38,333 nucleotides of DNA from a virus (Duplodnaviria > Caudoviricetes), in IMG/VR virus record IMGVR_UViG_3300038475_000012, positions 1 through 38,333 of that record; one strand, 5' to 3'. Shown here one piece after another: positions 1 to 35,810 of the stretch (positions are counted from its first letter, which is position 1; the number at the start of each line of letters is the position of its first letter). The position numbers and the translations under genes are program-made. Under the pieces are notes generated by a model, which was not told where the DNA came from, made no database searches, and saw only the letters and a program-made list of their open reading frames with translations.

Positions 1-127
1 CAGGAAATAGAAGCGCTCAATTTAATTGGATAGCAGTAGGCTTAATATAATAATTTAAATAACTCTATACAAACATATGGCATCTGCAAAAAGTAGGTAC
101 TACGCTAATCAAGTAAAAAAGGGGAAA
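1..127. repeat. 127-bp terminal overlap, identical to 38207-38333 (circular contig)
   Basis: First and last 127 nt are identical; the fibre ORF end and the start of ORF 77 continue across the junction. Confidence 0.97.
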
Positions 128-14111: not shown

Positions 14112-14411
14112 GGGGGATTGATAGGATATTATATCCAGAGAGTTGGTTAAGTATTCTTTAACAGTTCGGATTTTAAGATTTCTGGTGTTATTAAAATAAT
14201 GGTTATTGATTACAATTTAGCATTTAAGATTTTTTCTAACTTTCGCTCTAACCAGCTGAGCTACGAGGTTTCCCCCGACTGGAATCGAACCAGTGACATA
14301 AAGTTCCAATAGAATTTAGATAATGGAGTTGTAAATTGCAATTTACTGCGATGTTTAAGGCACATCGTCCAAAGCCTTCTCTCTCGCTATATAATATCCA
14401 TCCAATCCCCC
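14112..14411 (-). ncRNA. ~300-nt structured ncRNA with a circularly permuted tRNA-like domain (YrlA/Y-RNA-like)
   Basis: Terminal stem GGGGGATTGGATGGATATTATAT / ATATAATATCCTATCAATCCCCC encloses T-arm, GAAA-capped acceptor stem and D-arm (14238-14305). Confidence 0.85.
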
Positions 14412-16693: not shown

Positions 16694-16803
16694 TAAAACA
16701 GTTGAAACATAACAAGTTGGAGAGAATTGTTGGATGAATTGTGCTTATTGTCTTGCCGAGCATAATTTCCGAAAGCTTCCCGCAATTCTCTCCCTTCCCA
16801 AAT

Positions 16804-17553
16804 ATGAAAAAGATTTCAATTACTAATTTCAGAAAATATGTTTCGATGATTGAAAGGCTGGAACAAGAATTTTCAAGATATCCCTTGGTGGAAGAATTTA
16901 TTGTTGAATCTGAATTAGATGAAGAAACTGCTAAAGAGATCTATTATTTTATTAGAGATGATGTTGAAATACCAGAAGATGACTCCAGCAGTTATGAATT
17001 AATTATCAGAAGAGGATTGGGAAACAACGAATTAAAAAAACTCAGGGTTAAATCAAATTTAACTCAGGCGCAGTTAGGAATTAAACTAGGATTTGGAAAA
17101 CAAACAGTTACATCTTGGGAAACCTGTAGGGCATATCCTAGTGAGTATCAAAGAAAAAAAGTAGCTAAGTTTTTTAGAGTTGATGAGAATAATCTTTTTC
17201 CAAAATGGCTGGAGTTTATCGCGGACGAGATTAAAAACTCAGAAACTGAAAAAGTTGTGGAAATAGGAAAATTAAGACTGAACAATCCTGACGTACTTAT
17301 GATTGAAGATGATACTATGAAATCTCCAGAAAGAATTATAGATCAGATAAAGGGAAAAGAGCTATTAGAAAAAGCAGAAAAAATATTAACACCAAAAGAA
17401 TTAAGCTTAATTAGGTACCGATTTGGTTTTGAAGACGGATCTACTCACACGTTAGTCGAAACTGGAAGAGAATATGGAGTTACGCAAGAAAGAATCCGAC
17501 AAATTGAAGCTAAGGCAATAGAAAAAATAAGAAATCGTTTAGTTTCCTCTTAG
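16804..17553 (+). CDS. Regulator: sigma70 region 3-like + XRE HTH + sigma70 region 4
   Basis: LKKLR...LTQAQLG..LG...QTVTSWE (XRE); LTPKE...IRYRFGFEDG..HTL.E.G..YGVTQERIRQIEAKA (region 4); ATG 16804 follows a leader hairpin. Confidence 0.85.
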   Translation: MKKISITNFRKYVSMIERLEQEFSRYPLVEEFIVESELDEETAKEIYYFIRDDVEIPEDDSSSYELIIRRGLGNNELKKLRVKSNLTQAQLGIKLGFGKQTVTSWETCRAYPSEYQRKKVAKFFRVDENNLFPKWLEFIADEIKNSETEKVVEIGKLRLNNPDVLMIEDDTMKSPERIIDQIKGKELLEKAEKILTPKELSLIRYRFGFEDGSTHTLVETGREYGVTQERIRQIEAKAIEKIRNRLVSS

Positions 17554-20941: not shown

Positions 20942-21409
20942 GTGGAAAATGAGCAAGAGCAAAAAACAGATATTGACAATAACGGAGTTGAACAACCTTC
21001 GGATATTGAAGTGCCTAAGAAATCTTGGATTGAAGAAATGTGCCAAAGAGAAGCAACCCCAAAAGCAGAAAGGACAGAAACTATAGAAAAGTTTTGTGAG
21101 AGATATGGAATATCAGTAAGTACATATTCATATCAGCAACGCAAAAAAGAAAATAGAAAAAGAGTTGTTGAAATATGGCTTATTGAAGCATCTAATGGAG
21201 GTAATGAAGTATTAGCTAAATTAAAAGAAAACGCATTAGAAGGAAAAGAAAAATCAATAGAGATGTATTTAAAATTCGTATTAGAATTAGCAGAGAATTT
21301 AGATATTAAATCAGACGGAAAAGCATTACAAGTTATTTTTGATTCAGCCTTTAAAGATTATGGTCCGATTGCATCCAAAGCAGAGAGAGATAGTTCAAAG
21401 CAAGGATAG
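20942..21409 (+). CDS. Terminase small subunit (putative)
   Basis: HTH-like FCERYGISVSTY, C-terminal LDIKSDGKAL; overlaps TerL. Confidence 0.7.
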   Translation: MENEQEQKTDIDNNGVEQPSDIEVPKKSWIEEMCQREATPKAERTETIEKFCERYGISVSTYSYQQRKKENRKRVVEIWLIEASNGGNEVLAKLKENALEGKEKSIEMYLKFVLELAENLDIKSDGKALQVIFDSAFKDYGPIASKAERDSSKQG

Positions 21410-22544
21410 ATTCAGAGTATTATTGGCTGGACGAAGATTTGGTAAAACAGTATTAGCTGTAGAGGAATTAGCTTTCAATGCTTTAACAATAAAAAAAGCA
21501 AGAGTGTGTTACATAGCACCGACTTATCAGTCAGCAAGAGATATAGCTTGGGATATGCTAAAGAATAGATTGACTGGAATAGAAGCAAAGATAAACGATT
21601 CAAGATTAGAGATAGAAATTAACGGAAGTAGGATAATGTTAAGAAGCTGGGAGAATATAGAAACACTACGAGGACAGTTCTTTGATTTCATAGTAATGGA
21701 CGAGGTAGCTCAATATAAGAATTTCTGGGTTAATTGGCAGGAAGTATTAAGACCTTGCTTAACTGATCGCAGAGGTAGAGTATTATTTATTTCAACTCCA
21801 TTAGGATTTAATCATTTTTACGATTTATACAATAAGCCGGAATACAAAAGTTTTCATTTTACCAGTTATGACAATCCCTATCTCCCAGTAGAAGAACTAG
21901 ATAAAGCCAAAGAAGAAATACCAGAAGATAGATTCGCTCAAGAATATCTAGCAGACTTTAGAAAGACTCAAGGATTAGTTTACAAAGAATTTAGTAGGGA
22001 AAGACACGTTACAGACGAACAACCCAAACAAGTCATTGATACGATACTAGGAATAGATTTTGGATATACTAACCCAGCGGCTATTATTCCTATCAAGATA
22101 GATTCAGATAATAATTATTGGATTTTAGATGAGTGGTATAAAAGCAAACAAACAACAGAACAAATTGCAGAACAAGCAATGCTCTACAAATCGACAAAGG
22201 TTTACCCTGACCCTGCAGAACCTGATAGAATCGAAATCCTCAGAAAATCTGGCCTTAACTGTCGTGAAGTTTCCAAAGACATTGTGGCGGGAGTTGATAA
22301 CGTTAGGGAATTATTTAAACAAGGAAGGATTCACATTAACCCTGACTGCAAAAACCTTATCTATGAACTCGAGACGTATCGTTATCCTGACAAGAAGCCT
22401 GAAAAGAACGAAGAAGAAAAACCAGTCAAGGAAAACGACCACGCGTTAGATGCTCTAAGATACGCCCTATACACTCACAAGCCTAAGAAAAAGATATCTG
22501 ACCCTATATTTGAACAAAGAGGAACATATTATCAAGATATATGA
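21360..22544 (+). CDS. terL: Terminase large subunit
   Basis: LHPKQ, AGRRFGKT, MDEVA, ISTP, GIDFG, DHALDALRY. Confidence 0.95.
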   Translation: MVRLHPKQREIVQSKDRFRVLLAGRRFGKTVLAVEELAFNALTIKKARVCYIAPTYQSARDIAWDMLKNRLTGIEAKINDSRLEIEINGSRIMLRSWENIETLRGQFFDFIVMDEVAQYKNFWVNWQEVLRPCLTDRRGRVLFISTPLGFNHFYDLYNKPEYKSFHFTSYDNPYLPVEELDKAKEEIPEDRFAQEYLADFRKTQGLVYKEFSRERHVTDEQPKQVIDTILGIDFGYTNPAAIIPIKIDSDNNYWILDEWYKSKQTTEQIAEQAMLYKSTKVYPDPAEPDRIEILRKSGLNCREVSKDIVAGVDNVRELFKQGRIHINPDCKNLIYELETYRYPDKKPEKNEEEKPVKENDHALDALRYALYTHKPKKKISDPIFEQRGTYYQDI

Positions 22545-24588: not shown

Positions 24589-24767
24589 ATTTATGATAAC
24601 TCTACACATAAGCAAAAATCATTTCGATTATAAGATTGAGAAGAATGGAAAACAAACGGGTGGGACTATATGCGAAGAGATATTTAATCCTAAACTTACA
24701 GACGGATGGCATAAAAACAAGATTGGAATGAATTTATACAAAACTGTTTAAATGATGAAAAAACTCT

Positions 24768-25076
24768 ATGATAAAACAAAGATTTGTAGATTGGTTCTTT
24801 AGTTCACTGGAAAAAGAATTTAAAGACCAAAATAAGAAAATTGAAAAACTAGAAAAAAAACTGGAATTCCTTGATGGAAAAATTGATATGAATATCGGGA
24901 TAGATGAAAATATCAAATGGAAAGTATATCGTGTTATTGAAGACCATTTCCCCGATGAAATACATACTGTAAAACTAAGAGACGGCAGTGAACTTAAAAG
25001 TATAGTAACAGTTAGTCCGAAACACTGGGAAAGAGTAGACAAGTATATAAAAGAATTAGAAACAAATGAAAAATAA
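24768..25076 (+). CDS. Hypothetical protein
   Basis: ORF track; starts at AAACTCTATG. Confidence 0.65.
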   Translation: MIKQRFVDWFFSSLEKEFKDQNKKIEKLEKKLEFLDGKIDMNIGIDENIKWKVYRVIEDHFPDEIHTVKLRDGSELKSIVTVSPKHWERVDKYIKELETNEK

Positions 25077-27429: not shown

Positions 27430-27501
27430 TCAATTTTGATTATTTGGGCGAGTATCTCACGAAATCGCCCAAAGTGAGAAAATAATCAACTAATAAAAAT
27501 T

Positions 27502-27678
27502 ATGAAAAAAGTATCACAGCCTGAGTTGGCTAAACCTAAAAAGAATCAAAGTCCAGGACACAAGTTTAATCAAGCCGCTCATCCTAAAAAACACACTATT
27601 AAATCAAAGAAAATTAAAAAGGTTGAAAAAAATGTAGATGTTCCAGTAATGAATAAATGGAAACCTTTTGGAATGTAA
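27502..27678 (+). CDS. 58-aa Lys-rich protein
   Basis: Translated by hand; its stop overlaps the AAACTCTATG of the next gene. Confidence 0.55.
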   Translation: MKKVSQPELAKPKKNQSPGHKFNQAAHPKKHTIKSKKIKKVEKNVDVPVMNKWKPFGM

Positions 27679-27683
27679 ACTCT

Positions 27684-28187
27684 ATGGCATCAGAAGCAAG
27701 AATAGCATCAAATAAATGGCTTAGAAGAAAAGCCAAAGGAATCAAGGGGGATGTTCTTTCAATAGGTTCAATGAACGATGACGACTGTGAAGGAGGAAAG
27801 TACAGGAAGTACTTTGAATCTGCCAAGTCCTATACGACTTCCGACACAGACTCGGTATTAGGTGAAGTTGATCTTGTACTGGATGTAAAGAAACTAGACT
27901 TACCTGATGAAAGTTACGACTGTATATTCTGTTCTGGGGTATTGGAACACGTTGATGACTTTATGCAAGGAATGAGAGAAATTACCCGTGTACTTAAAAA
28001 TAAAGGAACATTATTACTAGGCGTACCTTTCAGACAAGCAATCCATAGTTACCCGCACGACTATTGGAGGTTCACAGAATATGCGCTTGAATATATGTTA
28101 AAAGATTATAAGATTAAAGAGATAAAACCCATAGATGATAAGGATTTCCCTGCATCCTACTGGGCAATAGCTATTAAAACTCTATGA
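27684..28187 (+). CDS. Class I SAM-dependent methyltransferase
   Basis: VLSIGS, YDCIFCSGVLEHV, RVLKNKG, HSYPHDYWRFT; start moved from 27657 to the motif ATG. Confidence 0.88.
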   Translation: MASEARIASNKWLRRKAKGIKGDVLSIGSMNDDDCEGGKYRKYFESAKSYTTSDTDSVLGEVDLVLDVKKLDLPDESYDCIFCSGVLEHVDDFMQGMREITRVLKNKGTLLLGVPFRQAIHSYPHDYWRFTEYALEYMLKDYKIKEIKPIDDKDFPASYWAIAIKTL

Positions 28188-28402
28188 AAAAAGAATTAAG
28201 CTGGCAATTTATTGCCGCAGACAAGCAGGAAAAAGATGGAAGATTTATGGAAGCTACGATAATTACAGTGAATGCTGTTGATGAAAAAGGAGCATTAAAA
28301 AAAGCGAAGTCTGTCATAAAAAGGAAAATATTTTTTCTAAAATCAGTGGCAGAAATTGATAACAGGATGGATAAAATTATTGATAATATGAAAACTCTAT
28401 GA
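28184..28402 (+). CDS. Hypothetical protein
   Basis: ORF track; motif start. Confidence 0.7.
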   Translation: MKKELSWQFIAADKQEKDGRFMEATIITVNAVDEKGALKKAKSVIKRKIFFLKSVAEIDNRMDKIIDNMKTL

Positions 28403-28662
28403 AACCATTTGGACAAAGATGTATCGTAATTATAGAAAAAAACTACATCAAAGAAAAAGGTAAACAAGTTTTGTTAGATGACGGTTATTTAAAATACGAC
28501 TTACCTCAAGAGGGAAAAGTAATCAGTTCTAACTTAGAAGGAATAAAAAAAGGAATGACTGTTATTGCCAATTACCGAGGAGGGATGCCGGTTATAAAGT
28601 TAGAAAATAAGAAGTTGGTTACTGTAATTTTTGACGCTGACGATATTTATGCAGTCCTCTAG
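28399..28662 (+). CDS. GroES-like co-chaperonin
   Basis: MKPFGQRCIV...GKVI...IKKGMTV...DDIYAVL parallels GroES (KPLGDRVLV...VK.GD.V...DILAV). Confidence 0.65.
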   Translation: MKPFGQRCIVIIEKNYIKEKGKQVLLDDGYLKYDLPQEGKVISSNLEGIKKGMTVIANYRGGMPVIKLENKKLVTVIFDADDIYAVL

Positions 28663-28903
28663 ATTTAGAAAATTAACCGATAGATTCGGTTGGAAGATAA
28701 GACCGATAACTTGTATCATCAATGGTAAACTGACCAGACGACCAGACATCCTAGCAGTAGAGAATCACGGCTTATGGGAGATGACGATACCGAAAAGAAT
28801 CTACAGTTTATCTGACCAGACATATACTGATTTGTTAGGACTGCAACACCCATCTTACTTTGAGTGTGAATCTAAGGCTTATAGTAGAAAATATGGAAAA
28901 TAA
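28649..28903 (+). CDS. Hypothetical protein
   Basis: ORF track 28631..28903; first ATG at 28649. Confidence 0.55.
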   Translation: MQSSRFRKLTDRFGWKIRPITCIINGKLTRRPDILAVENHGLWEMTIPKRIYSLSDQTYTDLLGLQHPSYFECESKAYSRKYGK

Positions 28904-30596
28904 ATTTAAAGTTCTGGCTATCATTACAGACTTAATAAGCAAGAATGGTAAAAAGTTTAAAAAGAAAGGCAAGCCAATTCACGGAGCAATCGGATGGTAT
29001 CGAGTTGTTAATCCTTTAAAAAGACTAGGGGCTGATATTTCTTTAGGAATGACTGTCCGTGCTGATCCTCAAAGTGCAACAGAAATGAAAGCAAGAGGAG
29101 ATATCTGGTTTCTAAAAATGGCTGACAATGAAGGCATAGATTATATCTACGACACTCATAAGAATTTTACTGGTGCTAAACTGATTATAGACATAGACGA
29201 TGAACCAGGAGAAGTTGACGAGAATCATCCCGACTCCAAAGCGATCAAAGAAAAGAAAGATATGCGGATGAGAATGTTAAAGATAGCTGACCACATTGTT
29301 GTGTCTACGCCTAAGCTGAAAGAGTCAATTAAAGACATCAATCCGTATTGTACTGTTATCCCTAACGCAATAGATCCTGACTTGTGGAAGATAAAGAACA
29401 AGTTAAAAAAAGACGGCAAGATTAGGATAGGTTGGATGGCTAGTGCTTCTCATTTCGTTGATACGCCTATCATCAGGCCAGCAATGGAAGAAATTTTAAG
29501 TAAATACCCCAACGTAGAGTTCCATTTTGCAGGATTTACTTGGGATGAATACAAAGAAGATAGATTTTTTCATCACGTTGGAGTAAGAGATTATATGGAT
29601 TTTCCTAAATGGTATGCAAAATTAGGCATAGATATATCAGTCTGCCCTTTAAAAGACAACAAGTTTAACCAAGCCAAGTCAAACATCAAGTGGATGGAAG
29701 CCGCAATGCTAGAAATTCCAACTATAGCCAGTGATACAGAGCCTTATAAGTGCATTAAGCACGGAAAAACAGGCTATCTGGCTAAGAACTCTAATGATTT
29801 TGTTAAATACCTGTCTTATCTGATAGAAAATGAAGAAAAGAGAAGGGAGATAGGACAAAATGCCAAGCAAGCCGTCTTAGATGAGTGGACTACTGATAAA
29901 TTTACCCATTTATACAAAGATTTATTTAAAAATATAGTTGATTTTAAAGAAATAGCTGTAGTTACTGCCATTACAGGAGATAAAGATGATTTAATCGAGC
30001 AAACCAGTTATCAAGGCGTTGAATACATCGCATTTACAGACCAGAAGTCATCTCAATGGAAGACTAGAAAACCCTGCGATAAGTTCAAAGAACCAGTAAT
30101 GAACGCTAAGATACACAAGATTTTGACCCATAAATATACTGATTTGCCCTACATAGTTTGGATGGATGGAAATTGTAAGTTAAAACAAGACCCCCACGAA
30201 CTGATAAAATTGATGGGAGATGAAGACTTTGCTTTCTTCACCCACCCAGGACGAGATTGCATTTATGATGAAGCGGATACTTGTGTTCAATTAAAAAAAG
30301 GAAACCCCAAAGAACTAGCGGAACAGATAAGAGAGTATGCCAAGCAAGAACACGCTCCTCACAGCGGACTATGCGAACTGACTTGCTTTATAAGAAAGAA
30401 CAATCCAAAATCTAATTTAGAATTTGAAAAGTGGTGGGCTGAGATTTGCAGATATTCAAATCGAGATCAAGTTTCCTTTCCGTTAATTTTTAAATATTGG
30501 GAAACTATACCAGGAACTGTTGCCAAGATAGAAGGAAATAAAACCTTTGTCGGCAATGATTTCTTCGAGTATAGGAAACATAAACTCTATGACTAA
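28893..30596 (+). CDS. Bifunctional glycosyltransferase (GT-B/GT4-like + DUF616-like domain)
   Basis: IDIDD, VIPNAID, IGWMAS, KSNIKWMEAAML; C-terminal VTAITGDKD, WMDGN, HPGRDCIYDEA, RDQVSF. Confidence 0.88.
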   Translation: MENKFKVLAIITDLISKNGKKFKKKGKPIHGAIGWYRVVNPLKRLGADISLGMTVRADPQSATEMKARGDIWFLKMADNEGIDYIYDTHKNFTGAKLIIDIDDEPGEVDENHPDSKAIKEKKDMRMRMLKIADHIVVSTPKLKESIKDINPYCTVIPNAIDPDLWKIKNKLKKDGKIRIGWMASASHFVDTPIIRPAMEEILSKYPNVEFHFAGFTWDEYKEDRFFHHVGVRDYMDFPKWYAKLGIDISVCPLKDNKFNQAKSNIKWMEAAMLEIPTIASDTEPYKCIKHGKTGYLAKNSNDFVKYLSYLIENEEKRREIGQNAKQAVLDEWTTDKFTHLYKDLFKNIVDFKEIAVVTAITGDKDDLIEQTSYQGVEYIAFTDQKSSQWKTRKPCDKFKEPVMNAKIHKILTHKYTDLPYIVWMDGNCKLKQDPHELIKLMGDEDFAFFTHPGRDCIYDEADTCVQLKKGNPKELAEQIREYAKQEHAPHSGLCELTCFIRKNNPKSNLEFEKWWAEICRYSNRDQVSFPLIFKYWETIPGTVAKIEGNKTFVGNDFFEYRKHKLYD

Positions 30597-30810
30597 AGAA
30601 GAATTGAAACACAAACTATTAAATTATGATACTGAATATGTTTCTCAAGTTAGGCCTTACGAGGGACAAGTTAGAATGACTGACGGATTTGCTTTTAAAG
30701 ATGATGTTATGGATATGTTCACTGAAGAAGAATTGAAAAAATACTCTGATGTTAAACTTATTCCTTATCCGGAAAAAGGAATAAACCAGTGGAAGATAAA
30801 ACTAATTTAA
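30589..30810 (+). CDS. Hypothetical protein
   Basis: Motif start inside track ORF 30547..30810. Confidence 0.65.
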   Translation: MTKEELKHKLLNYDTEYVSQVRPYEGQVRMTDGFAFKDDVMDMFTEEELKKYSDVKLIPYPEKGINQWKIKLI

Positions 30811-30816
30811 ACTTTA

Positions 30817-31661
30817 TGAAAATTGCACTGATAAATTATGAACAAAATCTTGGAATGGACGCTATCCTTTCCAAGTACGCCCGAATGTTAGAAAGAGAAC
30901 TTATAGACCTGGGACATGATGCCTTTATAACGGGAGAGCCAGTCGAGGCGGATATAAACCATCATATCAATTATATTTCATATAAACCCAGCGGTGGGAT
31001 AGACACCACGATGATTACCCACCTAACAGGAGATTTAAGCCACAGTGAAAAAGAAAAGATAAAGATGTGCAAAGAACAGTCAAAGACTGCTTTCGGAATC
31101 TGTATGAATAAGGAGATAATGGAGAAGCTCATTAAAAATGGAATACCCAAAGAAAAACTGTCTTATGTCCTGCACGCTCACGATGGAATGGAAAGAAGAC
31201 CACGCTTGATAGCAATGATTTATAACGTTTATCCAGACGGAAGGCAAAGAGAAGATATGTTTGTAAAACTGGTAAATTCACTCAAAGATAAATCAGACTA
31301 TGCTTTTCAGATTATGGGTAAAGGTTGGAAGCCGATACTCGACTCGCTTTTGAAGAAAGGCTTACAGGTAAATTATATGGATAATTTTTACGGAGACCTT
31401 TACCAACAGATGCTGATGACTTCTGACTATCTGTTATTCACAGGGGATGAAGATTCACTGGCTCAAAGTATCGTTGATGCAACCAACGCTGGACTTAGAG
31501 TCATAGCCCCGCCCCAGAATGGATTAAAAGTAGAATACCCTTTCAGTAATCAGCAAGAATTGAATCAGATATTTAAAGATATAAACTCTAATCCCGTGCG
31601 TGATTGGACTTGGGAAAACTACACCAAGCAGCACGAAACTCTATGGAACAGATTAAAATAA
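30817..31661 (+). CDS. Glycosyltransferase-like protein (GT-B)
   Basis: MKIALI start, L..LGHD, MGKGW, SDYLL...SIVDA.NAGL.VI. Confidence 0.7.
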
Positions 31662-32179
31662 ATTTAGGAGCGGGGATAAAACCGATAGAAGGATTTATCA
31701 ATGTAGATATCGAAGACTTAGGAAAAGACTATGTAAAAGCTGATGTTAGGAAACTTCCTTTTGATGACAACTTTGCTGACTATATCCTAGCTTCTGAAAT
31801 ATTAGAACATATCCCGATAAGAGATTTGCACAGTACATTAAAAGAATGGAAAAGAGTTTTAAAACCCGGTGGAAGAATGGTTATCAAGTGTCCAGACTTT
31901 GAAGCAATGGCTAAGGAATGGTTATCAAAGTCTTTTCTTCCTCAAGAGTATTCTGAAATGGCGCAAGGGCTTTACGGAAAACAAGCAACAGAAAATGAAT
32001 ATCACCGTTCCCCTATCACAGTTCCTTTAATGCAGTATCTGTTAGGCTCACTGAAATTTAAGAGAGGCGGAATAGTTACTTACTCGAAAGGTCATAAGCA
32101 AATAAGTTATCCAGGTATCAAAGCCAATCCGAGACGAGTCTATAGGTTCGGCACAATACATTGCGATGTTATCAAATGA
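31643..32179 (+). CDS. SAM-dependent methyltransferase
   Basis: INLGAG, INVD, ILEHI, RVLKPGG, CPD. Confidence 0.88.
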   Translation: MEQIKINLGAGIKPIEGFINVDIEDLGKDYVKADVRKLPFDDNFADYILASEILEHIPIRDLHSTLKEWKRVLKPGGRMVIKCPDFEAMAKEWLSKSFLPQEYSEMAQGLYGKQATENEYHRSPITVPLMQYLLGSLKFKRGGIVTYSKGHKQISYPGIKANPRRVYRFGTIHCDVIK

Positions 32180-32667
32180 AACTTAACTTGGCTTGTGGAG
32201 CAGACTACAGAAATGACTGGATAAACATAGACAACAACTCTCAAGGTGATTTTAAAGTAGATATAAAGAAAGATATTTTAAAACTGAAATGGAAAAAGAA
32301 CTCGGTCGATAGTATTCTGGTAATTCATTATATAATGTACTGCACTCCCCCAGAATTAGATATGCTTTTAAAGAGATGGTACGGATGGTTAAAAGTAGGA
32401 GGAGAATTACAGATTGAAACAGGAAACCTTTATGAGATATGCAAGAATATTCTGAAATGCAATACGATTGAAGAATTGCACGGAAAGAATTGCTTAAGGC
32501 AGGTATTCGGATGGGAAGAAACTCACGGTCACAAATGGTTATGGGCTCCAATAGTAGTTAAAGACGCTATGGAAAGAGCAGGATTTAAAGAGGTGGAATT
32601 AGCAAAGGGATACTATCACGAAAATCCAACTAGAGATTTTGTAATTAATGGAAAGAAAACTCTATGA
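32176..32667 (+). CDS. SAM-dependent methyltransferase-like protein
   Basis: LNLACG...WINID, WLKVGG; paralogue of the upstream gene. Confidence 0.8.
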   Translation: MKLNLACGADYRNDWINIDNNSQGDFKVDIKKDILKLKWKKNSVDSILVIHYIMYCTPPELDMLLKRWYGWLKVGGELQIETGNLYEICKNILKCNTIEELHGKNCLRQVFGWEETHGHKWLWAPIVVKDAMERAGFKEVELAKGYYHENPTRDFVINGKKTL

Positions 32668-32900
32668 CTTGGGATGAATTACAAAAACCATTTATAGGAG
32701 GTCATTGGTGGTACTGGATATTAACAGGAAGAAAATACAGTTTTCCTTTTATGAAACAAGACGGATATAAGGTTTATTGGAAAGTAGACGCCAGGCTTCC
32801 TAAATACCAGCAAAAACCCATTGAATGTAAATTGCTTAATTGGATATTTTATTTAGAATGTAAAGTCAATAAATTGAGAAGGAAACTCTATGAAAGGTAA
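32664..32900 (+). CDS. Hypothetical Trp-rich protein
   Basis: ORF track; motif start. Confidence 0.65.
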   Translation: MTWDELQKPFIGGHWWYWILTGRKYSFPFMKQDGYKVYWKVDARLPKYQQKPIECKLLNWIFYLECKVNKLRRKLYER

Positions 32901-33840
32901 AAAAATAGTTGTAGTGGGCGGTGGAGGATTTTTAGGAAGCCACCTAGTCAATCATTTAATTAAAGACAACGAGGTTTTAGTTTTAGATAACCTGATTACA
33001 GGAAAGAAAGAATTTGTCCACCCCAAAGCCGAGTTTATGTGGTGCGACATCACTCATAGTGAAAACCAGCTCATTAAAATATTTAAAGGTTACGATTACG
33101 TTTTCAACTATGCCGCCGAACCTTACATCCCCGTTTCGTTTGAACGACCATTACACGTTTTCGACATCAATGCTAGAGGAGCTTTAATGGTTATGAACGC
33201 CGCCCAAGAGGCAGGAGTGAAAGGAATCCTGCAAGTATCATCAGCAGAGATTTACGGGGACGCTCCGGAACACAAGATAAACGAAGAATATCCAGCCAGA
33301 CCGCATTCAACTTACGGAGCGGCAAAACTGGCTATAGACGCATTAGTCCAAGCAAGGTGGAGAGAATCAGGTTGTCCAGTGATTGCTCTTAGACAGTTCA
33401 ACTGCGTAGGGGAACGAGAAACTCATCCTTATGTAATTCCTGAAATAATCGGACAGTTAAGTAACAGTCCAACAGGAGAAGTCAAATTAGGAAACGATAC
33501 ATTTAGAGATTTTCAATACGCTGGGGACGCTGTACGGATGGCAACGGAACTTTTGGAAAAAGGACAGTTTGGAGAAGTTTACAATATGGGTTCAGAAAAA
33601 GGAATAAAGATATACGACTTGGCATTGCTTATAGGAAATATGATGGGAATACAACCAATGATTATAAAGGACGTAAAGAGAATAAGACCGTGGGACATAT
33701 TTCATTTACAAAGTGATAATACTAAACTCTATTCGGTGATTGATTCCCGACCAGAAGTTTCTTTAGAAGAAGCTTTGAAACGGACAATCGCTGATTATAA
33801 AAAAAATGGATTCATATTTACAACTGGAAAAAGAATATAA
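32890..33840 (+). CDS. NAD-dependent nucleotide-sugar epimerase/dehydratase
   Basis: GGGGFLGS, SSAEIYG, YGAAK (YxxxK), RDF, YNMGS. Confidence 0.93.
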   Translation: MKGKKIVVVGGGGFLGSHLVNHLIKDNEVLVLDNLITGKKEFVHPKAEFMWCDITHSENQLIKIFKGYDYVFNYAAEPYIPVSFERPLHVFDINARGALMVMNAAQEAGVKGILQVSSAEIYGDAPEHKINEEYPARPHSTYGAAKLAIDALVQARWRESGCPVIALRQFNCVGERETHPYVIPEIIGQLSNSPTGEVKLGNDTFRDFQYAGDAVRMATELLEKGQFGEVYNMGSEKGIKIYDLALLIGNMMGIQPMIIKDVKRIRPWDIFHLQSDNTKLYSVIDSRPEVSLEEALKRTIADYKKNGFIFTTGKRI

Positions 33841-34687
33841 GAAGTTTGTCGGTTCAAAGTATGCGGTTAGCTGTAACAGTGGAACATCAGCCTTACATCT
33901 GGCTTTAAAAGCGATAGGAGTAGGTTACGGAGATGAAGTGATAGTTCCAGAATTCACAATGATTGCCTGCGCTTATGCTGTATCGTATTGCGGAGCGACG
34001 CCAGTATTTGTAGATTGCCGAGATGACTTGAGCATTAACCCGTATCTCATAGAAGAAAAGTTGACCGGACGAACCAAAGCAATTATGCCAGTCCATATTT
34101 ACGGAATACTGTGCGATATGAAGACAATTCTAAGCATTGCCAAAGATAACCGATTGAAAGTCGTAGAGGACGCTTGCGAAGCGCAAGGAGCAGTTTACAA
34201 GTCAGAAGCCGATATAACCTGTTACTCGTTTTATAAGAATAAGATAATCCACGCAGAAGAAGGAGGGATAGCCACGACTGACAACAAGAAATATGCTGAT
34301 AGGATGAATTACCTTAAAAATATGTGTTTTAATAAGAAACACAATTATATCCACGAAGAAATAGGATTTAATTACCGAATGCCAGACAGTCAAGCCACAT
34401 TGGCGCTACATTCGCTCCACAATTATTCACAAGAGAAGGAAAGGAGGCAGGAACAAGTTGATAAATATAATAAAAGGTTTGGTTTGAATGTAAAGAATGA
34501 CGCTAACTGGATTTATCCAATCAAGAATGCTGATAACTGGATTAAAAATTACGATGGATTATATGCTGATTTAAAAACAAGAGAATTTTTTAAGCCAATG
34601 AGCCAACAACCACCTTACTTTGATTTAAACTATAAGAATCTGAACGCCTATAGATTATCTAAGCAAGGTATGTACATAAAATTATGA
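33806..34687 (+). CDS. DegT/DnrJ/EryC1/StrS sugar aminotransferase (perosamine synthase-like)
   Basis: NSGTSALHLAL, PVHIYG, EDACEA, SFYKNK, GFNYRM; lacks the usual N-terminal segment. Confidence 0.93.
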   Translation: MDSYLQLEKEYKKFVGSKYAVSCNSGTSALHLALKAIGVGYGDEVIVPEFTMIACAYAVSYCGATPVFVDCRDDLSINPYLIEEKLTGRTKAIMPVHIYGILCDMKTILSIAKDNRLKVVEDACEAQGAVYKSEADITCYSFYKNKIIHAEEGGIATTDNKKYADRMNYLKNMCFNKKHNYIHEEIGFNYRMPDSQATLALHSLHNYSQEKERRQEQVDKYNKRFGLNVKNDANWIYPIKNADNWIKNYDGLYADLKTREFFKPMSQQPPYFDLNYKNLNAYRLSKQGMYIKL

Positions 34688-35145
34688 CAGATGTATTTAG
34701 AGAACGAGTAGAATCGCCCCTAGAGCCTGAAATTGCCCCACAAGCCCCGAAACCCTTTGAAGAAACACCAGTACCCAGTGGGGAAGTAAAAGCCCAAGAA
34801 TCTGCCACGGCGGACGAAAAGCAGATTGAGATATGGGAAGGATTGAACCGAAGAAAGTACATATCAGAATATTTTAATATAAAAGCATTTGAAGGAGAAT
34901 TTAATTTAAAAATGCAAACCTCTCAGATAGACAAATATATTCGAGGGGAAATAGAAAAAAATGGATTTGAAAAGTCTATTGGAAATTATGAAAAGGTACT
35001 TCGAGAACTGGAAGCAGAGATTGGCTCTGATAGACTGGAAACATTTAAAAGGATTTCAAGATTGACAGGATATATTGCGGCATTGAATCGTCTCAATAAG
35101 GCAAAAGAAACTAAAGAAAGGTATTTAAACTCTATACAAATTTAA
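34684..35145 (+). CDS. Hypothetical protein
   Basis: ORF track; coupled to the aminotransferase. Confidence 0.7.
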   Translation: MTDVFRERVESPLEPEIAPQAPKPFEETPVPSGEVKAQESATADEKQIEIWEGLNRRKYISEYFNIKAFEGEFNLKMQTSQIDKYIRGEIEKNGFEKSIGNYEKVLRELEAEIGSDRLETFKRISRLTGYIAALNRLNKAKETKERYLNSIQI

Positions 35146-35167
35146 TATTTAGTGTATAGAGTTTTTT
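35127..35167 (+). terminator. Terminator-like hairpin built from the AAACTCTA motif
   Basis: AAACTCTATACA / TGTATAGAGTTT 12-bp stem running into a T tract. Confidence 0.55.
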
Positions 35168-35208
35168 ATTCCAAGGAGGATGTCCATAGAGTTCGTCCTC
35201 CAAGGAAT
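35168..35208 (+). promoter_or_regulatory. Hairpin with SD sequence in the stem and anti-AACTCTATGG loop
   Basis: ATTCC-AA-GGAGGATG [TCCATAGAGTT] CGTCCTCC-AA-GGAAT. Confidence 0.7.
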
Positions 35209-35228
35209 TAAGTATTTTATACAAATCT

Positions 35229-35810
35229 ATGGCATATACAAAATCTACATTGGCTACATTAAAGCAAAATTTAGCAGACAGGCACGACGGTGGGACGCTT
35301 CCGACAGACTCGGCTACTCTTTCTTATTGGATAAGACTTTTTAATAAAGGAGTCCAGTATTGCGCAGACGCTTTACAGCTTAAAAAGTTAACTTCTTTAA
35401 CGACTGTACTCGGAGTTATCGCTTTACCCGATGATTTCAAGTCTATCAATGCGGTTTTTAGCGGTGCAGAAGAATTGACACAAGTTTCCCCTGATGACGC
35501 TAGTAGCCAAGTAGGTTTTGTTTATTGGATAACTGGCGACCACGACACAGGGTTTACACTTAACGCAACGGCTGACCAAGCATTTACAGTTAAATATGCT
35601 TACTTTCCAGCTGATATGGCAGTGGATGCTGATGAATGTATCATCCCCGACCCAGAGGCTGTAGTGGCTTACGCTTATTCAATGATAAGAAGGGCAGAAA
35701 CCGACCCGATTGGGGACGCTCAAGAATCTATGGATGAATGTAAAAACAGGATCAAGTCAATGAAAAGTGATTATGATAATAATAATTCTAACCAAGAGAT
35801 GACAATGTAA
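35229..35810 (+). CDS. Head-tail adaptor (tubular protein A-like)
   Basis: 193 aa, LPDDF motif; precedes the nozzle gene. Confidence 0.7.
   Translation: MAYTKSTLATLKQNLADRHDGGTLPTDSATLSYWIRLFNKGVQYCADALQLKKLTSLTTVLGVIALPDDFKSINAVFSGAEELTQVSPDDASSQVGFVYWITGDHDTGFTLNATADQAFTVKYAYFPADMAVDADECIIPDPEAVVAYAYSMIRRAETDPIGDAQESMDECKNRIKSMKSDYDNNNSNQEMTM

Follow-up and report, generated by a model that had tools for sequence, protein, structure and literature searches.

Genome context and features of the locus

The stretch of DNA analyzed here (the window, 38,333 nt) is the complete circular 38-kb genome of a podovirus-like phage, with a 127-nt end overlap. It encodes a terminase, a P22/SU10-type portal, a capsid protein, a modification block comprising methyltransferase, glycosyltransferase, epimerase and aminotransferase genes, an SU10 adaptor and lysis genes. 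Among annotated capsids, the closest are ~30% identical to that of the window, and the sole match in a genome collection was a 31.6-kb contig from a bin labelled Gammaproteobacteria. Translation starts in the window are A-rich and SD-less: an SD-like 4-mer is found at 2 of 44 starts, compared with a background of 9%. Together with the canonical -35/-10-like promoters of the relatives, such starts would fit a host among the Patescibacteria. The locus of interest is a hairpin that lies just before the adaptor gene, and its loop is antisense to a short tag found at late gene starts. The features referred to throughout are the following, all on the + strand.

34684..35145, +, gene for a 153-aa helical protein of no recognized family; usual upstream neighbour of the hairpin
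35127..35164, +, preceding hairpin; a tag copy (35128-35135) is paired with a second antisense copy (35156-35163)
35153..35223, +, predicted alternative long form of 26 bp, with the upstream tag blocked; ends 5 nt before the adaptor AUG
35168..35208, +, main hairpin with a 13-bp core; the pairing is conserved, the stem sequence is not
35173..35180, +, SD-like AAGGAGGA in the 5' arm; incidental, found in 1 of 42 homologues
35183..35193, +, open loop complementary to the tag at starts; its seed AGAGUU (35188-35193) is almost invariant
35229..35810, +, SU10-type head-tail adaptor gene (PF24175), downstream neighbour; no tag
61..68, +, tag 16 nt 5' of the AUG of a 579-aa gene
24762..24770, +, tag on the AUG of a 102-aa ORF
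27678..27687, +, tag on the AUG of a methyltransferase gene; complementary to the loop over 10 nt
28178..28186, +, tag on the AUG of a 72-aa ORF
28393..28401, +, tag on the AUG of a groES-like gene (28399-28662); the most constant target across the family
30583..30591, +, tag on the AUG of a 73-aa ORF
31637..31647, +, tag on the AUG of a methyltransferase gene; its duplex with the loop, 11 bp, is the best in the genome
32658..32666, +, tag on the AUG of a 78-aa ORF
32884..32892, +, tag on the AUG of an NAD-dependent epimerase gene

The stem of the main hairpin, GGAGGAUG/CGUCCUCC, pairs positions 35175-35182 with 35194-35201 around the loop, and a 2x2 A bulge and 5 further pairs complete it. 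Its folding energy is -17.9 kcal/mol (z-score -5.4), and none of 200 shuffled sequences was equally stable, bearing out an initial annotation that had described a hairpin displaying the antisense of a late start motif. The loop is complementary to AACUCUAUG, a word found on eight late start codons. There are exactly eight + strand copies of AACTCTATG, at the eight AUG-covering positions listed above, and each falls on an ATG that opens an ORF, so the loop can indeed pair over the AUG of all eight motif starts, as the annotation had it; the match extends to 10 nt at 27678 and 31637. Genome-wide, the 10 best + strand partners of the loop include all eight tagged starts, and AACTCTAT is the most over-represented + strand 8-mer (15 observed, one of them a duplicate within the 127-nt end overlap, versus 1.5 expected). 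All eight AUG tags are located upstream of the hairpin on the same strand and within the same late block, the operon limits being predicted. The tagged starts show no unusual structure, and the AUG tags tested lie in unstructured sequence. Relative to the consensus, the window loop converts two G-U pairs on the AUG into Watson-Crick pairs. The gene at 28399-28662 was assigned as groES-like by its match (E 2e-17) to an HMM of the relatives' proteins, 7 of 8 of which match Pfam Cpn10. Three further tags within coding regions (33725, 36906 and 37471) were discounted; they track conserved K-L-Y and N-S-I codons, and silent positions vary.

Searching the main hairpin region against Rfam returned nothing at E <= 1. 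No promoter was found directly upstream of the hairpin, and a terminator scan of the window called neither the main nor the preceding hairpin. No RNA run was listed as containing the window sequence, and three metatranscriptome assemblies from the same study contained short unrelated matches only and were uninformative on expression.

Several other elements of the genome were noted in passing. Within the head operon, positions 27657-34687 (+) form a variable block with three methyltransferases, glycosyltransferases, the NAD-dependent epimerase and a DegT-type aminotransferase, possibly serving virion or surface glycosylation. A protein combining HTH_3 with sigma-70 region 4 (16741-17553, +) is encoded at the early-gene divergence point and is likely a repressor or activator. 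In the early region, 14218-14322 (-) matches YrlA (Y RNA-like) with a score of 42 bits, short of the gathering score of 69, and an E of 3e-6 for the whole window. A hairpin resembling a tRNA T arm is followed there by a D-arm-like one, and ARAGORN called no tRNA. The window terminase (21360-22544) is 21-26% identical to those of relatives G001, G003 and G005 and 61-74% identical to those of other relatives, which suggests terminase exchange within the phage family. Directly after the capsid stop, 27436-27492 (+) holds a conserved pseudoknot-like RNA that is found in the same place in L010-L014, L022, L027, L031, L034, L039, L064, L071, L072 and L091. It consists of an outer helix, an inner helix that varies in sequence and a CUCA-type loop for which a UGAG-type stretch further downstream provides the match, and the window copy has no match in Rfam. 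L016, L033, L040, L042, L043, L093, L099 and L114 have a second type, which in some cases follows a promoter-like sequence. The pseudoknot-like RNA may protect the end of the capsid message or lead the next gene.

Conservation of the hairpin among related phages

Loci of relatives were collected with protein alignments: 99 were found with the adaptor alignment, and capsid and nozzle searches added 6 and 40, partly overlapping. Alignments were required, single-protein searches with the adaptor or the 153-aa protein having returned no loci. Among 59 loci with a distinct homologue of the 153-aa protein, the hairpin was located in 45 by script and in 6 more by inspection, leaving 8 without it. This yielded 43 distinct hairpins, 42 of which were analyzed after one near-duplicate was left out. 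The loop core is nearly invariant among them (A 42, G 42, A 41, G 42, U 41 and U 34 of 42). Over the first ten stem positions, 345 of 420 cells hold Watson-Crick pairs, 54 G-U and 5 A-C, in a register picked by Watson-Crick pairs alone, and the preponderance of G-U over A-C fixes the + strand as the one that folds. A test of 12 stem pairs was carried out on 16 of the 42 homologues, picked by register for a 10-nt loop such that the count leans to structure; all 12 pairs were found to be changed on both sides, with 95% of cells paired and 0 of 500 shuffles doing as well. The full stem spans 18-28 bp across the homologues. Four or more T residues in the 8-nt tail were seen in 9 of 42 only, the remaining 33 having no U-tract, and the hairpin is therefore no classical terminator.

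An RNA model built from 16 relatives finds one hairpin copy in each relative that has it. The model scores the window hairpin at E 3.4 only, and on five further records, G016 included, it returned nothing of note; the hairpin of G016 was found by folding. Homology of the window hairpin is based on its position, seed, 3' flank and target.

The initial annotation had placed weight on AAGGAGGA in the 5' arm, describing it as an SD that is rare in this genome and too far from ATG 35229 to serve it, and had suggested that loop pairing might expose it in trans as a ribosome-recruiting adaptor. The word is present and lies ~49 nt from that ATG. Its rarity did not hold up: SD-like words are common inside genes, with AAGGAGGA occurring 2 times, AAGGAGG 5 times and GGAGG 39 times. 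Nor did exposure in trans survive the comparison, since the window phage is the only one of 42 with GGAGG or AGGAG in the 5' arm, the 12 stem pairs are replaced freely, and SDs are unused at starts. We consider the hidden SD to be incidental. A DNA pattern built on the SD stem had matched 9 viral loci that share no genes, and these were set aside as chance matches.

Start tags in relatives and their joint change with the loop

Targets were surveyed in 21 phages, represented by 9 whole or near-whole records and 12 partial loci. Exact complements of a phage's own loop fall within -40 to +12 of a predicted start in 65 of 139 cases versus 12.0 expected, while a reversed control gave 2 of 27. These near-start sites cover the AUG in 32 instances, lie in the first codons in 8 and are upstream in 25. 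Tags are confined to late genes: with late-gene boundaries set by us in three genomes, they were found at 12 of 42 late versus 0 of 26 other genes in the window, and at 5 of 30 versus 0 of 25 and 5 of 24 versus 0 of 28 in two relatives. The groES-like start is tagged most consistently (13 of 15), followed by a post-portal small gene (7 of 15). Tags also occur near two glycosyltransferases (7 of 22 and 4 of 10), the epimerase (3 of 6), terminase (3 of 8), scaffold (2 of 17) and nozzle (1 of 25), and none was found at capsid (0 of 19), portal (0 of 13) or adaptor (0 of 25) starts. Tag density is lower at five loci without the hairpin (p 0.008, 21 vs 5 loci), and at hairpin-less groES-like starts the tag is absent in 5 of 5.

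Changes in the loop are mirrored by changes in the tag. At the groES-like start (n=21), a phage's own loop pairs with an energy of -10.72 kcal/mol as compared with -8.95 +/- 0.35 kcal/mol for swapped loops (p 5e-5, kinship uncorrected). In 9 of 11 variant lineages the own loop outpairs the consensus loop on its own target, and consensus-type targets favour their own loop in 104 of 121 comparisons. L034, for example, has the loop AGGGUU and the tag AACCCU, while its closest relative, L091, has AGAGU with AACUCU. In L027, L069, L016, L071 and L026 one position each is altered on both sides. L153 was first classed as hairpin-less, and its groES-like start reads AACCCU. An exact 7-mer search of L153 for a matching loop failed, and folding then revealed an AGGGUU hairpin directly before the adaptor; two further starts carry AACCCUAUG, so the 6-nt seed swap held. 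L153 is far from L034 in a quick capsid tree, and the change from AGAGUU/AACUCU to AGGGUU/AACCCU has arisen twice independently. The fit is not perfect throughout. The loop of L033 ranks 18th of 21 on its own target and pairs only with the A of the AUG bulged, own and consensus loops tie in L023, the last loop base of L091 is changed with its tags unchanged, and the minimum-energy fold of L153 shuts most of the loop with weak pairs (-31.6 versus -26.4 for the open form). Conservation of the loop and its co-variation with the motif in relatives was the check that the initial annotation had put forward, and both were found; a multi-target antisense RNA, as it had proposed, is thereby supported. 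Taken across relatives, the hairpin makes up a genuine RNA family of phages that is not yet catalogued, and the comparative evidence for the predicted pairing of loop and starts is good.

Some arrangements in relatives were recorded separately. L025 (2836-2874), L039 (3750-3771), L017, L024 and L093 have 2-4 tandem tags, spaced 10-13 nt apart, before the groES-like AUG. In L017 (2227), L020 (519), L022 (3705) and L024 (122) there is a hairpin 5' of the scaffold gene with the tag partly in its loop. On the 3' side of the main hairpin, L026, L031, L033, L036, L038 and L071 have promoter-like -35/-10 sequences followed by a tag-led leader hairpin, in several cases with a T run.

The preceding hairpin and the neighbouring protein

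The preceding hairpin (12 bp, z -4.7) pairs the motif with a second antisense copy, just as the initial annotation had noticed, and its tag copy forms the end of the 153-aa ORF. An upstream tag is found in 25 of 42 homologues, and a preceding hairpin of 7 bp or more is formed in 12. For 11 of these 12, the free fold combines the preceding hairpin with a shorter main stem (13-16 bp in ten, 23 bp in one). When the upstream tag was blocked in these folds, the main stem was predicted to reach 24-32 bp. The long form of the window RNA has a predicted energy of -28.8 versus -30.6 kcal/mol, a difference of 1.8 kcal/mol. Folding thus predicts that the preceding hairpin switches the main stem between a shorter and a longer form.

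The 153-aa protein is predicted to adopt a helical domain (mean pLDDT 82), and nothing was found for it in Pfam, PHROGs, Atlas or fold searches. In a fold comparison the best Z was 4.8; four proteins that we take to be ANTAR-type scored Z 3.4-3.9, within background. Besides the loci described above that have the gene and lack the hairpin, the complete genome G016 has the hairpin without the gene. Since each occurs alone, an obligate protein-guide pair is unlikely.

A model for hairpin function and alternatives to it

We regard base pairing between loop and tag as very probable. As to its consequence, our preferred reading, held with moderate confidence and with its direction drawn from geometry only, is that the hairpin is an antisense RNA that derives from the operon and acts as a repressor of accessory late genes. 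On the late message it would follow the head and modification block, and it would build up as a stable fragment, which a double-strand RNase possibly cuts out of the 18-28-bp stem. The loop would then pair with tags at the phage's accessory late starts and block ribosome loading, with a 9-11-bp duplex across -6 to +4 excluding initiation. The preceding hairpin is predicted to shorten the main stem unless a ribosome or another copy of the loop occupies the upstream tag. The groES-like, glycosyltransferase, methyltransferase and epimerase genes would in this way come under delayed negative feedback, with synthesis of capsid going on.

A duplex over the AUG or the first codons cannot be held in the initiation complex. 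Repression is the best reading because duplexes are predicted at just these positions and leave out the abundant virion proteins. The downstream position of the hairpin would make the feedback a delayed one, in line with what PMC7398697 and PMC9438474 describe for OppZ. The ends of the RNA are marked neither by a promoter just upstream nor, in 33 of 42 homologues, by a U-tract, and the predicted duplexes are short (-6 to -16 kcal/mol). A counterpoint to repression is that roughly half of the near-start sites are found 9-40 nt 5' of the start. Some of these are part of small hairpins, and pairing there could free the start instead of blocking it. Between blocking and recruiting, both of which the initial annotation had entertained, blocking is favoured, with the expression and the effect of the RNA being predictions.

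Activation is possible but doubtful. The RNA would open start structure by pairing or tether a ribosome or initiation factor, providing a private substitute for the SD/anti-SD pair without an SD. The near-absence of SD use in this phage (2 of 44 starts) is consistent with this idea, as are the tandem tags, up to four, 5' of the groES-like AUG, the repeated tagging of variable accessory genes and, in several relatives, a small hairpin that stops ~10-12 nt short of the AUG and has the tag as its 5' arm or loop. However, the AUG is covered in 32 of the 65 near-start sites and the first codons in 8, and loop positions 2 and 3 mostly still pair with the G and U of the AUG (37 of 42 and 40 of 42). 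The most abundant virion proteins are untagged, and no second ribosome surface is conserved, the stems varying freely with an SD in 1 of 42. In an extended form, which we think unlikely, the hairpin would be switched on by translation of the upstream gene and would deliver ribosomes or open starts, forming a private, re-codable initiation code in SD-less hosts that replaces the anti-SD.

It is also quite unlikely that pairing, in trans or within a single molecule in cis, directs how the long late message is folded or cleaved, such that cistrons are cut apart or degraded and translation is affected secondarily. Tags do occur at gene junctions, often on overlapping stop/start codons, and the hairpin is on the same strand and 3' of most targets. 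The 18-28-bp stem could bind a double-strand RNase, and RNase III frees RsaC (PMC9438474). Nevertheless, a duplex of 9-11 bp is short for RNase III, and the fixed AUG register at 32 sites points to initiation itself.

That loop and tag do not pair at all, the tag being a protein or DNA site or having a host-RNA partner and the hairpin serving as a decoy or message-end structure, is very unlikely. The seed is near-invariant, as would be expected of a protein site, and L033 shows no co-variation; the seed also resembles an AGAGUU that we take to lie near the 5' end of 16S rRNA. A decoy would need the minus strand, however, and the G-U excess fixes the + strand. Moreover, the sisters L034 and L091 differ in loop and tag alike, early genes are untagged, and relatives without the hairpin are poor in tags, including at the groES-like start. 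Finally, transcription attenuation, with the loop pairing the 5' arm of tag-bearing terminator-like hairpins such as 35127-35164 to allow read-through into the tail genes, is the least probable explanation, for although U-rich sequence follows the preceding hairpin (kept in 12 of 42) and tag-led hairpins come after promoter-like sequences in the six relatives described above (by eye; 2 of 42 by regex), the preceding hairpin is absent from 30 of 42 homologues and is not called by the terminator scan, its 3' arm has an alternative partner 3' of the main stem, and the tested AUG tags are in unstructured sequence.

Relation to known regulatory RNAs

Literature searches returned no description of this hairpin RNA. 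No match was found in passages of PMC10690425 or in six supplement files of that paper, three others of which may list it as a candidate, and the hairpin is not described in the available portions of 10.64898/2026.09.22.753630 and PMC11979758. In its working the hairpin resembles c4 and OppZ, and it is a member of neither. The c4 RNA of phages P1 and P7 (RF01695; PMC12197685, PMC2864571) is likewise a phage structured RNA, an antisense RNA whose loops pair with the phage's own mRNA near the ribosome-binding site, and sequence differences likewise give it phage-specific pairing (PMC12197685). Unlike c4, the hairpin is single, uses one seed for 1-12 late-operon targets and pairs on the AUG itself, and it does not match RF01695 in Rfam at E <= 1. 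Its targets are groES-like, methyltransferase and epimerase genes and small ORFs, whereas that of c4 is the antirepressor (ant) message.

OppZ and CarZ, 3'-UTR sRNAs of Vibrio cholerae, are similarly encoded downstream in the operon they target and on the same strand (PMC7398697 and PMC9438474). They too pair at starts and spare an abundant product, OppZ repressing its own operon behind the abundant first gene (PMC7398697): OppA is spared there, and capsid (0 of 19) here, with groES-like starts tagged in 13 of 15. These sRNAs differ from the hairpin in being bacterial, dependent on Hfq and RNase E, and directed to one main site. The phage hairpin instead has many sites, a seed displayed in a loop, a long stem of free sequence, no U-tract and an SD-less context. 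The 3' end of an OppZ/CarZ-type sRNA is an intrinsic terminator. In the phage family, 4 or more T are found in 9 of 42 tails, and no terminator was called in the window. RsaE and RNAIII of Staphylococcus aureus reach many starts with a short unpaired loop motif by way of the host SD. The phage hairpin also uses a loop motif for many starts, and it differs in that the tag it reads is private and evolves jointly with the loop.

Targets are known for few small RNAs of phages, and most of those in the literature consulted act on one message or on the host. The hairpin brings a predicted regulon of up to a dozen starts together with a conserved core target, and its natural compensatory alleles are ready-made specificity controls. 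It also poses a testable question: how the timing and proportions of late proteins are set from one long message without usable SD strength. With 41 nt, a free stem and a re-codable seed of 6-10 nt, the hairpin would be a minimal programmable translation regulator.
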